Below, in pieces: positions 6,747 through 57,697 of a stretch of DNA of 64,000 nt (position 1 is the stretch's first letter; each line of letters opens with the position of its first letter). The position numbers were made by a program, and so were the translations under genes. The DNA lies in NCBI RefSeq assembly GCF_050920415.1, contig NZ_CP169309.1. One strand, given 5' to 3'. The stretch comes from Escherichia coli. Lineage in GTDB: Bacteria; Pseudomonadota; Gammaproteobacteria; Enterobacterales; Enterobacteriaceae. Under the pieces are notes generated by a model. That model was not told where the DNA came from. It saw only the letters and a program-made list of their open reading frames with translations, and made no database searches.

Positions 6747-7164
6747 TTTTGGTCCTGGTCTGAGGAATGGTTGTCAGGTATCTGTATCTCGTCCAGTTGC
6801 TTTACTCGTAGCTGGTTCTTTGAAACGATGGTGCCGGTACGCCTTAGTTATAAACTTTTCCCTACTGCTGACATAATTGGCACTTTATTGTGTCAACTCC
6901 AGTTCCGGTACGAATACGGATATGTTTACTTCTCGATAAACCATCCTGCTCCTGTCAGTATAACTACTGATGGCTACGTTCTGCGTAATGTTTAGAGACG
7001 CATTGATAATGTTATTTAATTACTGAGAACAATGGCCGCATCATTTAAAAAGAAAAAACTAACAGTGTTTCGGTCTGATATGGATCAGCGTTGAAAAACA
7101 TGTCTGATATAAAATTGAACATTGTTGATAATTGTTTATATTGGTTGTGAACTTGGATTTCTGG

Positions 7165-8037
7165 ATGACAGTATTCAACAAATTTGTTAGAAGTTTTAAA
7201 TCTCATTGGTTGTTGTATCTTTGTGTTATTGTTTTTGGTATTACGAACTTAGTCGCCTCTTCCGGAGCGCATATGGTTCAGCGATTGCTGTTCTTCGTTC
7301 TGACCATCCTGGTTGTTAAACGTATATCATCCCTTCCGCTTCGCCTGCTTGTTGCCGCATCATTTGTGTTACTGACAGCGGCAGACATGAGTATTAGCCT
7401 CTATTCATGGTGTACCTTTGGTACAACTTTCAATGATGGATTTGCGATTAGTGTGCTGCAGAGTGATCCGGATGAAGTTGTCAAAATGCTGGGGATGTAT
7501 ATCCCTTATCTATGTGCTTTTGCCTTTTTATCCCTTCTTTTTTTGGCAGTAATAATAAAATATGATGTTTCCTTGCCGACGAAAAAAGTGACAGGAATAT
7601 TATTGCTGATTGTCATTTCGGGCAGTTTATTTTCCGCTTGTCAATTTGCTTATAAAGATGCAAAAAATAAAAAAGCGTTCAGTCCATATATACTAGCGTC
7701 GCGATTTGCTACCTATACACCGTTTTTCAATCTCAATTATTTTGCTTTAGCAGCGAAAGAGCATCAAAGATTACTCTCAATTGCAAACACGGTGCCGAAT
7801 TTTCAATTATCAGTCAGGGATACAGGTATTGATACCTACGTGTTGATTGTGGGGGAGTCTGTACGTGTCGACAATATGTCTTTGTATGGATATACACGCT
7901 CTACGACACCGCAAGTCGAAGCACAAAGAAAACAGATCAAACTGTTTAATCAAGCAATAAGCGGTGCACCTTACACTGCGCTGTCGGTTCCCCTTTCTTT
8001 AACTGCTGATTCTGTTTTGAGTCATGACATTCATAAT
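7165..8037 (+). pseudogene. yhbX: yhbX 5' fragment (EptA/sulfatase-family phosphoethanolamine-transferase-like inner membrane protein), interrupted by IS insertion
   Basis: N-terminal membrane domain ORF (MTVFNKFVRSFKSHWLLYL...) that runs straight into the IS left end and stops 4 codons inside it. Confidence 0.85.
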
Positions 8038-8138
8038 TGTCAGCGCCAATGATATAAGACAGTAATTCACCATTTGGATTGTCCGCTCCACCCAACATGT
8101 TGTTTCCTTAAGGTTCCTACACCACAAAGGGAACACTC

Positions 8139-10104
<1,966 letters not shown>

Positions 10105-10161
10105 TGACCAATAGCGGACATTAAAAATGGCGAAAAACGGCCAATAATCTTGGCGTTGACA

Positions 10162-10918
10162 TAATTACCCGGACAACATTATTAATATGGCTAATCAAGC
10201 AGGATTTCAGACTTTCTGGCTAAGCTCGCAATCCGCTTTTCGGCAGAATGGTACAGCAGTTACCAGTATCGCCATGCGCGCCATGGAAACAGTCTATGTC
10301 AGAGGATTTGATGAATTGTTGTTGCCGCATTTATCGCAAGCGTTACAGCAAAAGACGCAGCAAAAGAAACTGATTGTTCTTCATTTAAATGGAAGCCATG
10401 AACCGGCTTGTAGCGCCTATCCGCAATCCAGCGCCGTGTTTCAACCACAGGACGATCAGGATGCCTGCTATGACAACTCCATTCATTACACAGATAGTTT
10501 GCTAGGTCAGGTTTTTGAATTATTAAAAGATCGCCGAGCCTCGGTCATGTATTTTGCCGACCATGGCCTGGAACGCGACCCGACGAAGAAGAACATTTAT
10601 TTTCATGGAGGCAGGGAGGCCAGCCAGCAGGCATATCATGTTCCGATGTTTATCTGGTATAGCCCCGTTCTTGGGGATGGCGTGGATCGCACAACGGAAA
10701 ACGATATCTTTTCCACTGCTTACAATAATTACCTTATTAATGCGTGGATGGGGGTAACAAAGCCGGAACAGCCGCAAACGCTGGAGGAAGTGATTGCACA
10801 CTATAAAGGAGATTCACGGGTTGTAGATGCAAACCATGATGTTTTCGATTTTGTGATGCTAAGAAAGGAGTTTACTGAGGATAAGCAAGGTAACCCCACC
10901 CCTGAAGGGCAGGGTTGA
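10162..10918 (+). pseudogene. yhbX: yhbX 3' fragment (sulfatase-like catalytic domain)
   Basis: Continues the 5' fragment in frame once the IS and one TAAT copy are removed (...SHDIHN/YPDNIINMANQAGFQTFWLSS...). Confidence 0.85.
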
Positions 10919-12693: not shown

Positions 12694-12815
12694 CTTTCCC
12701 TTAGAGTCCTTTTTCAAATATACTGTGAAGACTTCGGCCTTCGTAGTGGGATTTGAAAAAATCCTTCTGGAAAGTGCTCCAGACCGCAGTTGCGGTTATA
12801 GGGTTCAGTTATATA

Positions 12816-12885
12816 AAGCCCCGATTTATCGGGGTTTTTTGTTATCTGACTACAGAATAACTGGGCTTTAGGCCCTTTTTTTATG
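12816..12885 (+). terminator. two tandem hairpin-U tract terminators/attenuators between metY and rimP
   Basis: aaagccccgatttatcggggttttttg and gggctttaggcccttttttt. Confidence 0.65.
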
Positions 12886-14891: not shown

Positions 14892-17564
14892 ATGACAGAT
14901 GTAACGATTAAAACGCTGGCCGCAGAGCGACAGACCTCCGTGGAACGCCTGGTACAGCAATTTGCTGATGCAGGTATCCGGAAGTCTGCTGACGACTCTG
15001 TGTCCGCACAAGAGAAACAGACTTTAATTGACCACCTGAATCAGAAAAATTCAGGCCCGGACAAATTAACGCTGCAACGTAAAACCCGCAGCACCCTTAA
15101 CATTCCTGGTACCGGTGGAAAAAGCAAATCGGTACAAATCGAAGTCCGCAAGAAACGCACCTTTGTGAAACGCGATCCGCAAGAGGCTGAACGCCTTGCT
15201 GCGGAAGAGCAGGCGCAGCGTGAAGCGGAAGAGCAAGCCCGTCGTGAGGCAGAAGAATCGGCCAAACGCGAGGCGCAACAAAAAGCTGAACGTGAGGCCG
15301 CAGAACAAGCTAAGCGTGAAGCCGCTGAACAAGCGAAACGTGAAGCTGCGGAAAAAGACAAAGTGAGCAATCAACAAGACGATATGACTAAAAACGCCCA
15401 GGCTGAAAAAGCCCGCCGTGAGCAGGAAGCTGCAGAGCTCAAGCGTAAAGCTGAAGAAGAAGCGCGTCGTAAACTCGAAGAAGAAGCACGTCGCGTTGCT
15501 GAAGAAGCACGTCGTATGGCGGAAGAAAACAAATGGACTGATAACGCGGAACCGACTGAAGATTCCAGCGATTATCACGTTACTACTTCTCAACATGCTC
15601 GCCAGGCAGAAGACGAAAGCGATCGTGAAGTCGAAGGCGGCCGTGGCCGTGGTCGTAACGCGAAAGCAGCGCGTCCGAAGAAAGGCAACAAACACTCTGA
15701 ATCAAAAGCTGATCGTGAAGAAGCACGCGCAGCAGTACGTGGCGGTAAAGGCGGAAAACGTAAAGGTTCTTCGCTGCAGCAAGGCTTCCAGAAGCCAGCT
15801 CAGGCCGTTAACCGTGACGTTGTGATTGGCGAAACCATCACCGTTGGTGAACTGGCGAACAAGATGGCGGTTAAAGGTTCTCAGGTCATCAAAGCGATGA
15901 TGAAACTGGGCGCAATGGCAACCATCAACCAGGTTATCGATCAGGAAACCGCACAGCTGGTTGCTGAAGAGATGGGCCACAAGGTTATCCTGCGTCGTGA
16001 AAACGAGCTGGAAGAAGCGGTAATGAGCGACCGTGACACAGGTGCTGCGGCTGAACCGCGCGCGCCGGTTGTGACCATCATGGGTCACGTTGACCACGGT
16101 AAAACCTCTTTGCTGGACTACATTCGTTCAACGAAAGTGGCCTCTGGCGAAGCGGGCGGCATTACCCAGCACATTGGTGCATACCACGTTGAAACTGAAA
16201 ACGGCATGATCACCTTCCTGGACACCCCGGGGCACGCCGCGTTTACTTCAATGCGTGCACGTGGTGCGCAGGCAACGGACATCGTAGTCCTGGTTGTTGC
16301 TGCCGACGACGGCGTAATGCCGCAGACCATCGAAGCAATTCAGCACGCGAAAGCGGCAGGCGTGCCGGTTGTGGTTGCAGTGAACAAGATCGACAAACCA
16401 GAAGCCGATCCAGATCGCGTTAAGAACGAACTCTCCCAGTACGGCATCCTGCCGGAAGAGTGGGGCGGTGAAAGCCAGTTCGTACACGTGTCTGCGAAAG
16501 CAGGTACCGGTATCGATGAACTGCTGGACGCTATCCTGTTGCAGGCAGAAGTTCTGGAACTGAAAGCGGTACGTAAAGGTATGGCGAGCGGTGCGGTTAT
16601 CGAATCCTTCCTCGATAAAGGTCGTGGTCCGGTTGCTACCGTTCTGGTACGTGAAGGTACTCTGCACAAGGGCGACATCGTTCTGTGTGGTTTCGAATAC
16701 GGTCGTGTTCGCGCAATGCGTAACGAAATGGGTCAGGAAGTGCTGGAAGCAGGTCCGTCCATTCCAGTTGAAATCCTTGGCTTGTCCGGTGTTCCGGCAG
16801 CGGGTGACGAAGTTACCGTAGTGCGTGACGAGAAGAAAGCACGTGAAGTTGCACTGTATCGTCAGGGCAAATTCCGTGAAGTTAAACTGGCACGTCAGCA
16901 GAAATCGAAACTCGAGAACATGTTCGCTAACATGACCGAAGGCGAAGTTCACGAAGTGAACATCGTTCTGAAGGCAGACGTTCAGGGTTCCGTGGAAGCG
17001 ATCTCCGACTCCTTGCTGAAACTGTCTACTGACGAAGTTAAAGTGAAGATCATCGGTTCTGGCGTAGGTGGTATCACCGAAACCGACGCTACCCTGGCTG
17101 CGGCGTCCAACGCCATCCTGGTTGGTTTCAACGTACGTGCTGATGCCTCTGCACGTAAAGTGATTGAAGCGGAAAGCCTGGATCTGCGTTACTACTCCGT
17201 CATCTATAACCTGATCGACGAAGTGAAAGCGGCGATGAGCGGTATGCTGTCTCCGGAACTGAAACAGCAGATTATCGGTCTGGCGGAAGTTCGTGATGTG
17301 TTCAAATCACCGAAATTTGGTGCCATCGCAGGTTGTATGGTTACTGAAGGTGTGGTTAAACGTCACAATCCGATCCGCGTTCTGCGCGACAACGTGGTTA
17401 TCTACGAAGGCGAGCTGGAGTCCCTGCGCCGCTTCAAAGATGACGTTAACGAAGTCCGTAACGGTATGGAATGTGGTATCGGCGTTAAGAACTACAACGA
17501 CGTCCGCACTGGCGATGTGATCGAAGTATTCGAAATCATCGAGATCCAACGTACCATCGCTTAA
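14892..17564 (+). CDS. infB: translation initiation factor IF-2
   Basis: 890-aa ORF with charged repeat-rich N-terminal region and GTPase domain ([21 protein letters not shown]). Confidence 0.95.
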
Positions 17565-17581
17565 GGTTTTTAGGGTTCTAT

Positions 17582-17650
17582 GCGGGATAAGGCGTTTACG
17601 CCGCATCCGGCATGGATTGCCTGATGCGACGCTGGCGCGTCTTATCAGGC
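17582..17650. repeat. REP (repetitive extragenic palindromic) elements
   Basis: gcgggataaggcgtttacgccgcatccggca and gcctgatgcgacgctggcgcgtcttatcaggc. Confidence 0.8.
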
Positions 17651-17685
17651 TACGTGAACAGCCCTTCTAACTGAAATTAATTTTA

Positions 17686-19124: not shown

Positions 19125-19490
<366 letters not shown>

Positions 19491-19506
19491 TTCTTGCGAG
19501 TTTCAG

Positions 19507-19534
19507 AAAAGGGGCCTGAGTGGCCCCTTTTTTC
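19507..19534 (+). terminator. rpsO rho-independent terminator
   Basis: aaaaggggcctgagtggccccttttttc. Confidence 0.8.
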
Positions 19535-19735
19535 AAACTGACGGCAGCAATTCACTGGAAACTAATGTATTGTTGCTATGAATGATCTTCCGTTGCAGAG
19601 GTTCGCGCGGCTAATGAGAGGCTTTACCCACATTGGGCTGGGTTAGGGTTGTCATTAGTCGCGAGGATGCGCAGAAGATCGGGTATTAACACCAGTGCCG
19701 TAAGGTGCTGTCTAAGAAAGAGAAAGGATATTACA

Positions 19736-23043: not shown

Positions 23044-24933
23044 ATGGCTGAATTCGAAACCACTTTTGCAGATCTGGGCCTGAAGGCTCCTATCCTTGAA
23101 GCCCTTAACGATCTGGGTTACGAAAAACCATCTCCAATTCAGGCAGAGTGTATTCCACATCTGCTGAATGGCCGCGACGTTCTGGGTATGGCCCAGACGG
23201 GGAGCGGAAAAACTGCAGCATTCTCTTTACCTCTGCTGCAAAATCTTGATCCTGAGCTGAAAGCACCACAGATTCTGGTGCTGGCACCGACCCGCGAACT
23301 GGCGGTACAGGTTGCTGAGGCAATGACGGATTTCTCTAAACACATGCGCGGCGTAAACGTGGTTGCCCTGTACGGCGGCCAGCGTTATGACGTGCAATTA
23401 CGCGCCCTGCGTCAGGGGCCGCAGATCGTTGTCGGTACTCCTGGCCGTCTGCTGGATCACCTGAAACGTGGCACTCTGGACCTCTCTAAACTGAGCGGTC
23501 TGGTTCTGGATGAAGCTGACGAAATGCTGCGCATGGGCTTCATCGAAGACGTTGAAACCATTATGGCGCAGATCCCGGAAGGTCATCAGACCGCTCTGTT
23601 CTCTGCAACTATGCCGGAAGCGATTCGTCGCATTACCCGCCGCTTTATGAAAGAGCCGCAGGAAGTACGCATTCAGTCCAGCGTGACTACCCGTCCTGAC
23701 ATCAGCCAGAGCTACTGGACTGTGTGGGGGATGCGTAAAAACGAAGCGCTGGTACGTTTCCTGGAAGCGGAAGATTTTGATGCGGCGATTATCTTCGTTC
23801 GTACTAAAAACGCGACTTTGGAAGTGGCAGAAGCTCTTGAGCGTAACGGCTACAACAGCGCTGCACTGAACGGTGACATGAACCAGGCGCTGCGTGAGCA
23901 GACTCTGGAACGCCTGAAAGATGGTCGTCTGGATATCCTGATTGCGACCGACGTTGCGGCCCGTGGCCTGGACGTTGAGCGTATCAGCCTGGTAGTTAAC
24001 TACGATATCCCGATGGATTCTGAGTCTTACGTTCACCGTATTGGTCGTACCGGCCGTGCGGGGCGTGCTGGTCGCGCACTGCTGTTCGTTGAGAACCGCG
24101 AGCGTCGTCTGCTGCGCAACATTGAACGCACTATGAAGCTGACCATTCCGGAAGTAGAACTGCCGAACGCAGAGCTGCTGGGCAAACGCCGTCTGGAAAA
24201 ATTCGCCGCTAAAGTACAGCAGCAGCTGGAAAGCAGCGATCTGGATCAATACCGTGCACTGCTGAGCAAAATTCAGCCGACTGCAGAAGGTGAAGAGCTG
24301 GATCTCGAAACTCTGGCAGCCGCACTGCTGAAAATGGCACAGGGTGAACGTACTCTGATCGTGCCGCCAGATGCGCCGATGCGTCCGAAACGTGAATTCC
24401 GTGACCGTGATGACCGTGGTCCGCGCGATCGTAACGACCGTGGCCCGCGTGGCGGCCGTGAAGATCGTCCGCGTCGTGAACGTCGTGATGTTGGCGATAT
24501 GCAGCTGTACCGTATTGAAGTGGGCCGCGATGATGGTGTTGAAGTTCGTCATATCGTTGGCGCGATTGCTAACGAAGGCGACATCAGCAGCCGTTACATC
24601 GGTAACATCAAGCTGTTTGCTTCTCACTCCACCATCGAACTGCCGAAAGGTATGCCGGGTGAAGTGCTGCAACACTTTACGCGTACTCGCATTCTCAACA
24701 AGCCGATGAACATGCAGCTGCTGGGCGATGCACAGCCGCATACTGGTGGTGAGCGTCGTGGTGGTGGTCGTGGTTTCGGTGGCGAACGTCGTGAAGGCGG
24801 TCGTAACTTCAGCGGTGAGCGCCGTGAAGGTGGTCGTGGTGATGGTCGTCGTTTCAGCGGCGAACGTCGTGAAGGCCGCGCGCCGCGTCGTGATGACTCT
24901 ACTGGTCGTCGTCGTTTCGGTGGTGATGCGTAA
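23044..24933 (+). CDS. deaD: cold-shock DEAD-box RNA helicase DeaD (CsdA)
   Basis: 629 aa from [21 protein letters not shown]; motifs [25 protein letters not shown]; RG/RGG-rich C-terminal tail. Confidence 0.95.
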
Positions 24934-24972
24934 TTCGCTGACCCGCAGAACTCTGCCGTAAAGTAAAATATA

Positions 24973-25004
24973 CAGCCCCGATTTTAACAATCGGGGCTTT
25001 TTTT
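24973..25004 (+). terminator. deaD rho-independent terminator
   Basis: cagccccgattttaacaatcggggcttttttt. Confidence 0.8.
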
Positions 25005-25013
25005 CTGTCTTTT

Positions 25014-33816: not shown

Positions 33817-33998
33817 CATGTCGGATGCGGCGTAAACGCCTTATCCGACCTACGGTTTGCATCGTTGCAGGCCTGATAAGACGCGGCAAGCGTCGCATCA
33901 GGCAACGGCAGTCGGATGCGGCGCAGGCGCCTTATCCGACCTACGGTTTGTGTCGTGTAGGCCTGATAAGACGCGGCAAGCGTCGCATCAGGCATTAC
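33817..33998. repeat. BIME/REP cluster (about 4 REP units)
   Basis: Alternating gtcggatgcggcg...cgccttatccgac and gcctgataagacgcggcaagcgtcgcatcaggc palindromes. Confidence 0.9.

Positions 33999-57320: not shown

Positions 57321-57697
<377 letters not shown>

Follow-up and report, generated by a model that had tools for sequence, protein, structure and literature searches.

Arg/Gly-rich C-terminal region of DeaD and charged repeats of IF2 in an Escherichia coli genome: canonical repeat numbers and rare in-frame length variation

The cold-shock DEAD-box RNA helicase DeaD (CsdA) of Escherichia coli K-12 has RNA-dependent ATPase and helicase activity and is needed at low temperature, and its C-terminal extension has been proposed to house both an ATP-independent annealing activity and a second RNA-binding site that lacks specificity (PMC3590231, PMC1616957). 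Like DeaD, the helicases RhlE, SrmB and RhlB and the P. aeruginosa proteins RhlE1 and RhlE2 carry basic, disordered and non-conserved C-terminal extensions (PMC11260450, PMC1616957), and in related bacterial helicases such disordered extensions affect how the protein binds and unwinds RNA and how it phase-separates (PMC11260450). Part of the DEAD-box literature cited in PMC11260450 points to a possible promotion of condensation by RGG/RG-like tails.

A second described system is IF2, the product of infB. Its domain I (aa 1-157) is present only in IF2-alpha, where it comprises a compact NusA-binding N1 subdomain and a flexible linker (PMC12297416). Lamotrigine selection in the laboratory readily yields domain-II mutations that keep the reading frame, namely deletions and a duplication (PMC4371806, PMC10486304), and one such resistance deletion, of aa 176-192, overlaps the domain-II repeats described below (PMC10486304).

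The window, that is, the whole stretch of 64,000 nucleotides of E. coli DNA analysed here, contains both genes:

14892..17564, + strand: infB coding sequence (IF2-alpha), 890 aa plus stop
23044..24933, + strand: deaD (csdA) coding sequence, an open reading frame of 629 aa plus stop

These two assignments, made in a first-pass annotation of the window, are borne out by NCBIfam, TIGR and Pfam matches and by the K-12 gene order, which is kept collinearly (rimP-nusA-infB-rbfA-truB-rpsO-pnp-nlpI-yrbN-deaD-mtr); the nlpI-yrbN-deaD-mtr setting is collinear with the annotated regions of both K-12 and E. coli MFDS1022581. DeaD scores 1395.6 bits against the NCBIfam equivalog NF008642 (cut-off 989), with residues 1-629 aligned to profile positions 1-628 of 628. 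Its five Pfam domains, all above their gathering scores, follow in the order PF00270 DEAD (residues 30-196), PF00271 Helicase_C (232-340), PF25399 DeaD_dimer (374-443), PF03880 DbpA (489-558) and PF12343 DeaD_C (568-629). Similarly, IF2 reaches 987.5 bits against the TIGR00487 equivalog (cut-off 424.4) over residues 306-889, and Pfam recognizes IF2_N twice, IF2_assoc, GTP_EFTU and IF-2. By every criterion tested by sequence, DeaD and IF2 are members of their families, and nothing contradicts the gene assignment. TIGR00487 leaves the N-terminal 305 residues of IF2, which bear the repeats, uncovered. A match that begins at residue 306 fits a lineage-specific N-terminal region of IF2.

Our findings indicate that the window almost certainly carries the DeaD C-terminal region and the charged IF2 linker with canonical repeat numbers, subject to rare in-frame slippage, and that the additional open reading frames overlapping deaD are mechanical by-products. 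The features themselves are already known, having been described previously in two heavily studied genes, and are present here in their canonical form. Their discovery value is small, as they are textbook features of deaD and infB.

Translation and Pfam matches divide the interval 24360-24933, which is the 3' end of deaD, into three parts, namely a linker, a DbpA-type domain and a tail of 62 aa, the last of which begins with an imperfect tandem array:

24373..24507, + strand: linker rich in Arg and Asp (aa 444-488), located between DeaD_dimer and DbpA and containing two R(D/N)DRGPR units
24508..24717, + strand: DbpA-type RNA-binding domain, aa 489-558 (Pfam PF03880, E = 1.3e-20)
24745..24930, + strand: Arg/Gly-rich, probably disordered C-terminal tail, aa 568-629 (Pfam PF12343 DeaD_C)
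24745..24840, + strand: imperfect tandem array of a 33-bp (11-aa) unit in 2.9 copies (Tandem Repeats Finder, 73% matches, score 115)

The C-terminal protein sequence read in the first-pass annotation was reproduced on translating 23044-24930, both in the linker (aa 451-482) and in the tail (aa 568-629). The DbpA-type domain, although it falls inside the interval flagged as low-complexity, is a folded domain. Arg accounts for 33% and Asp for 18% of the linker, in which DRGPR occurs at aa 457 and 465. The tail consists of 32% Gly and 31% Arg, whereas the helicase core has 6% Gly and 9% Arg; the tail has a net charge of +8, contains four GERR motifs, and matches PF12343 DeaD_C with 45.6 bits (cut-off 23.3), residues 568-629 spanning profile positions 1-62 of 62.

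The order within these segments was compared with controls in which codons were shuffled 5000 times within each segment, so that composition stayed fixed. At lags chosen beforehand, the identity of the tail at lag 33 (0.53, shuffle mean 0.42) was reached by 32 of the 5000 shuffles, and that of the linker at lag 24 (0.57, shuffle mean 0.37) by 6 of 5000. When the best lag was left free, the corresponding counts were 520/5000 for the tail and 284/5000 for the linker, which is not clearly significant. Because the periodicity is weak once the lag is free, compositional bias accounts for most of the pattern in the DeaD regions and tandem order for little of it, and calling them repeats is a slight overstatement.

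The earlier description of the tail as an RG/RGG region is accurate as to its richness in Arg and Gly, but RGG is a loose label, since the literal RGG triplet occurs once in the tail and GGR three times. A regular-expression search of DeaD found no di-RGG or tri-RGG; it returned a lone RGG at aa 572 in the tail and another at aa 469 in the linker, and the only di-RG matches were RGPRG and RGGGRG. The canonical RGG box, as Thandapani et al. 2013 are said to define it, consists of RGG repeated with 0-4 residues between (at least two triplets). The DeaD tail is Arg/Gly-rich, but it lies outside this canonical class.

Like the eukaryotic RGG/RG boxes of FUS, nucleolin and the Ded1/DDX3 tails, the tail is an extension of an RNA-binding protein or helicase that is rich in Arg and Gly, positively charged overall and probably disordered, and non-specific RNA binding is presumed. 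It is unlike them in having a single RGG and no di- or tri-RGG spacing, and acidic residues are interspersed in the unit that recurs in it, GERREGGR. The DeaD tail is also bacterial, and it is not known to undergo arginine methylation. DEAD-box condensates are reportedly the subject of work by Hondele et al. 2019, which PMC11260450 lists as its reference 21.

In DeaD the RecA-like pair of domains and the dimerisation domain are followed by the auxiliary region, made up of a probably flexible linker, the DbpA-type domain and the probably disordered tail. In comparison with extensions of the RhlE, SrmB and RhlB type, DeaD adds the dimerisation domain and a DbpA-like folded domain ahead of the tail. 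Among the best 60 PDB matches, the chains deposited as E. coli DeaD cover only residues 6-210 and 218-445, and coverage ending at residue 445 fits a flexible region beyond that point. That the tail binds RNA and is disordered is suggested by its composition, by the name of its Pfam family and by the literature. Read in the light of that literature, the tail is most likely a non-specific electrostatic RNA-binding appendage, which may tether the helicase core to RNA or to pre-ribosomal substrates and aid strand annealing.

In infB, the corresponding features lie in the part of the gene that encodes domains I and II:

15201..15357, + strand: IF2 domain-I 8-aa repeats (AEEQA(Q/R)RE twice, REAAEQAK twice), period 24, in IF2-alpha only
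15363..15365, + strand: GTG codon 158, predicted internal start of IF2-beta, read from the sequence (position per PMC10486304, PMC12297416)
15384..15386, + strand: ATG codon 165, predicted internal start of IF2-gamma (beta2), read from the sequence (position per PMC10486304, PMC12297416)
15444..15527, + strand: repeats of IF2 domain II, periods 24 and 21, in all isoforms; EEARR occurs at aa 189, 197 and 204

Charged tandem repeats had been reported from the N-terminal part of IF2 at about 15170-15540, and both Tandem Repeats Finder and the shuffle control support that report. The region 15170-15540 is rich in Glu, Ala, Arg and Lys, is built of 8-aa repeats and brackets the starts of IF2-beta and IF2-gamma; Tandem Repeats Finder places its 24-bp (8-aa) units at 15201-15256, 15283-15357 and 15444-15507. 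Domain I has an identity of 0.71 at lag 24, where shuffling gives 0.375 on average; none of 5000 codon shuffles reached 0.71, and the periodicity here far exceeds what composition gives. The presence of GTG158 and ATG165 in frame predicts the alpha, beta and gamma isoforms of IF2. The domain-I repeats (15201-15357) would represent the flexible linker known from IF2-alpha, ending just before these two codons, and the charged 8-residue linker of domains I and II may join the NusA-binding N1 subdomain to the remainder of the factor.

An alignment with K-12 DeaD and IF2, proposed in the first-pass annotation as a way of detecting differences in repeat number, revealed none and yielded one and three substitutions, respectively. 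DeaD and K-12 DeaD/CsdA (WP_001295553.1) are both 629 aa long and identical at 628 of 629 positions, the sole substitution being D471G, and the domain order, repeat numbers and genomic neighbours are as in K-12. IF2, with 890 aa in each strain, differs by A269S, Q490G and L613M, all outside the repeats, while its repeat region and its GTG158 and ATG165 starts are identical to those of K-12. This protein is the common Escherichia allele IF2_ESCF3, recorded on at least 1000 contigs. The window accordingly carries the canonical K-12 repeat numbers for both proteins. A difference in repeat number from K-12 was rejected on the equal lengths of DeaD and IF2.

The one residue at which DeaD departs from K-12 lies in the linker:

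24454..24456, + strand: codon 471, GGC (Gly), where K-12 and the nearest genome, MFDS1022581, have GAC (Asp)

The change is an A-to-G SNP at 24455, which turns RGPRGD into RGPRGG within the Arg/Asp-rich linker. It is one of only 3 differences between the window and MFDS1022581, which are 99.988% identical over 24.7 kb. Just one contig, of 5.31 Mb, has a record of the exact DeaD protein with D471G, and the SNP is a private one.

At the nucleotide level, deaD differs from K-12 at 52 positions (48 of them third codon positions, and 1 of the 52 amino-acid-changing), and infB at 77, of which 70 are third codon positions. Both frames are under ordinary purifying selection. The 3' end of deaD is an uncommon nucleotide sequence: 24300-25000 is at least 99% identical in only 2 of 5,425 genomes, most standing at 95-96%, whereas the infB repeat region reaches at least 99% identity in 1,683 genomes. 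Such rarity might reflect a horizontally imported or otherwise unusual allele. However, the whole 23.7 kb around deaD is about 96.8% identical to K-12, which indicates background divergence of the lineage; deaD shows an even distribution of differences over its length, with 0-8 in each 150 bp; and these are concentrated at third positions, the protein being that of K-12 except for D471G. An imported deaD segment was rejected on these grounds, namely the match to the strain background and the even, nearly all third-position differences, and we regard import as very unlikely. Background divergence of the lineage is the preferred reading of the deaD 3' end.

To describe length variation in the repeats, 5,426 complete E. 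coli genomes were searched with short queries (counts are given per 5,425) and outliers were fetched; further variants came from members of 90%-identity protein clusters. The following alleles were recovered:

DeaD, 633 aa: +4 aa (+REGG), in MZ1211 and B1.H1.18
DeaD, 639 aa: +10 aa (two additional GGERR), in A1.S1.160
DeaD, 618 aa: -11 aa, in cluster member P0012
DeaD, 607 aa: -22 aa, in 14EC047
DeaD, 603 aa: -26 aa, in EC0026B, a laboratory-derived isolate
IF2, 898 aa: +AEEQAQRE, in BS74R-D
IF2, 898 aa: +REAAEQAK, in cluster member P0020
IF2, 906 aa: two additional REAAEQAK, in OkiPb01695
IF2, 883 aa: -EEARRVA, in cluster member P0021
IF2, 882 aa: -EEEARRKL, in cluster member P0025

All aligned length variants are in frame. 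Those of DeaD found in E. coli fall within 24745-24840, and those of IF2 lie inside the repeat arrays, with gains of 8 or 16 aa in domain I and losses of 7 or 8 aa in domain II. With the variant allele as query, the 633-aa DeaD allele was found in about 189 of 5,425 genomes (approximately 3.5%), and the IF2 allele of 898 aa that duplicates AEEQAQRE in about 8 of 5,425. The DeaD alleles of 603, 607, 618 and 639 aa are single examples each, and the IF2 alleles of 882, 883, 898 and 906 aa each account for well below 1%. Canonical length is retained in more than 95% of the 5,425 E. coli genomes. Of the roughly 189 copies of the 633-aa DeaD allele, 184 share at least 99% identity with the 161-bp test query, which suggests that this allele traces back to a single inherited event. 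Salmonella DeaD also has 629 aa and the same repeat numbers; Salmonella IF2, of 892 aa, has two single-residue insertions outside the repeats, and its repeat numbers are likewise the same.

The statement in the first-pass annotation that these regions are prone to length variation is therefore right in that in-frame repeat indels exist, but the rarity of such indels, the predominance of the canonical length and the unchanged repeat numbers of Salmonella tell against a pronounced tendency. Mechanistically, both regions have direct repeats that are short, imperfect and in frame (33 bp and 24 bp), at which replication slippage or unequal recombination would occasionally insert or delete whole units, and selection would preserve the reading frame and the canonical length in nearly all strains.

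A more dynamic interpretation would make the repeats a contingency (phase-variable) locus, in which frequent slippage switches or tunes DeaD or IF2. In keeping with it, the natural E. coli length alleles differ by multiples of short repeated segments, one variant (EC0026B) comes from a laboratory-derived isolate, and lamotrigine readily selects indels in IF2 domain II (PMC4371806, PMC10486304). However, since the aligned variants are all in frame, none of them switches the protein off, and the units, at 12-33 bp, are long and, with 73-82% matches, imperfect, unlike the homopolymer and short-unit tracts of known contingency loci. The near-uniformity of the +12-bp DeaD allele fits a single inherited event better than recurrent switching, and the canonical length in more than 95% of the genomes and the repeat numbers shared with Salmonella point in the same direction. 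Across the aligned variants and the 5,425 genomes, we did not find the frequent repeat change, shifting the frame or the promoter spacing, that characterizes a contingency locus. Phase variation is extremely improbable on this evidence, and rare slippage that leaves the frame intact remains the reading we adopt.

It is also unlikely, if somewhat less so than either import or phase variation, that the natural repeat alleles of these two cold-adaptation factors, DeaD (603-639 aa) and IF2 (domains I and II, 882-906 aa), are functionally meaningful rather than neutral. If they were, DeaD alleles might tune RNA binding or condensation, and IF2 alleles ribosome maturation or lamotrigine sensitivity; the natural 882- and 883-aa IF2 alleles would then belong to the same class as the laboratory lamotrigine-resistance deletions. 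The window, with its canonical alleles, would represent the reference state only, and D471G would amount to no more than a small change of charge. As a by-product, the survey offers a population picture in which the arrays do change length in nature, in frame where examined and rarely, and are stable between E. coli and Salmonella.

Three further open reading frames overlap deaD:

24371..24709, + strand: second +1-frame ORF, 112 aa, frame offset +1 to deaD, by-product
24728..24961, + strand: poly-Val ORF, 77 aa, frame offset +1 to deaD, by-product of CGT/GGT codons
23398..25059, - strand: antisense ORF, 553 aa, codon-complementary to deaD, codon-usage by-product

The Arg and Gly codons of the tail comprise 17 CGT, 16 GGT, 4 GGC and 2 CGC, and the poly-Val product arises because codons of the CGT/GGT type, read one base later, become GTG, GTC or GTT, all of which encode Val. 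For a stop to appear in the +1 frame, a codon ending in TA or TG must be followed by a suitable base. No Arg or Gly codon of the tail has such an ending and no Leu codon was read in the tail sequence, so the +1 frame is open automatically. The antisense frame has a different origin: its codons pair with those of deaD, so that antisense stops would lie opposite TTA, CTA and TCA. CTA and TCA are absent from deaD and TTA occurs twice, the later copy, at 23398, closing the antisense ORF, which stays open because deaD lacks all three codons after that position. This ORF reflects codon bias, not low complexity. The earlier proposal that low complexity explains the spurious ORFs consequently applies to the poly-Val and the other +1-frame ORF, but not to the long antisense ORF, which depends on the absence of TTA, CTA and TCA.

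Open frames of 77, 112 and 553 aa are long enough to raise the question of a real overlapping gene inside deaD, and both +1-frame ORFs are open in K-12 too. Against this, the differences from K-12 change the amino acids of these ORFs nearly every time (6 of 6 for 24371-24709, 8 of 8 for the poly-Val ORF and 44 of 47 for the antisense ORF), compared with 1 of 52 for DeaD; within the interval 24361-24933, 1 of 17 differences changes the deaD frame. The K-12 version of the antisense ORF contains 2 internal stops, a search of the three alternative-frame and antisense ORFs returned no Pfam match, and their openness follows from codon content. Substitution patterns, the K-12 stops and the absence of family matches led us to reject these ORFs as genes, and the chance that any of them is real is close to nil. 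Substitution patterns show that, among the frames considered, only those of deaD and infB are conserved. For annotation purposes, codon composition suffices to account for the Val-rich +1-frame ORFs and for the antisense ORF of 553 aa, all of which can be set aside, in line with the mechanical origin given above.

An Rfam gathering scan of the whole window gave no structured RNA between 19677 and 33870, a span that includes the DeaD tail and its surroundings. Downstream of deaD, the sequence has the form of a terminator:

24974..25005, + strand: terminator-like hairpin and T-run, 3' of deaD (6 of the 10 stem pairs are G-C, the loop has 5 nt, and TTTTTTT follows)

In DeaD, the RNA helicase encoded at 23044-24933 (+), a private A-to-G SNP at position 24455 produces the substitution D471G, by which RGPRGD becomes RGPRGG within the Arg/Asp-rich linker. 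The SNP is present neither in K-12 nor in the nearest complete genome, MFDS1022581, the two genomes compared, and the exact D471G protein is recorded from one 5.31-Mb contig only.

Nucleotide differences from K-12 in infB, the IF2 gene (14892-17564, +), are nearly all synonymous. When counted in 150-bp bins, they are bunched in the 3' half of the gene, at 16242-16990, with 10, 15, and 10 differences in the bins starting at 16242, 16692, and 16842, respectively, vs 0-6 per 150 bp in the rest of infB. This clustering suggests a mosaic or recombinant history inside the gene. An ORF antisense to infB (15041-15370, -) carries six nucleotide differences from K-12 and no amino-acid differences. Its third codon positions fall on those of infB, so the absence of amino-acid changes is expected and is no sign of coding.

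Natural in-frame losses from the domain-II repeats occur in two other E. coli IF2 proteins, taken from a 90%-identity protein cluster: P0021 (883 aa) lacks EEARRVA, and P0025 (882 aa) lacks EEEARRKL. At the sequence level, these deletions resemble in kind the laboratory-selected deletions that confer lamotrigine resistance (PMC4371806, PMC10486304).

Relative to K-12, the window carries approximately 2.1 kb of extra sequence at 8039-10159, which cuts yhbX into two halves (7132-8052 and 10187-10918) and contains two ORFs:

8139-9185, IstA-like ORF, seemingly truncated as judged by eye
9307-10104, IstB-like ORF, ORF translation inspected

From inspection of the ORF translations alone, we read this segment as a putative IS21-family insertion.

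A unit of approximately 85 bp is present in two adjoining copies at 33820-33994, vs one in K-12. Rfam matches to naRNA4/CssrE were obtained at this site and beside infB:

33870-33941 (-), naRNA4/CssrE match
17581-17651 (+), naRNA4/CssrE match, directly 3' of infB

The elements at 33820-33994 and 17581-17651 look like REP-type repeats whose copy number differs from that in K-12.

The Rfam search of the window also recovered expected known RNAs:

12782-12882, rimP leader
19163-19277, S15 leader
19506-19677 (-), SraG, an sRNA lying antisense within rpsO-pnp
57321-57697, RNase P RNA
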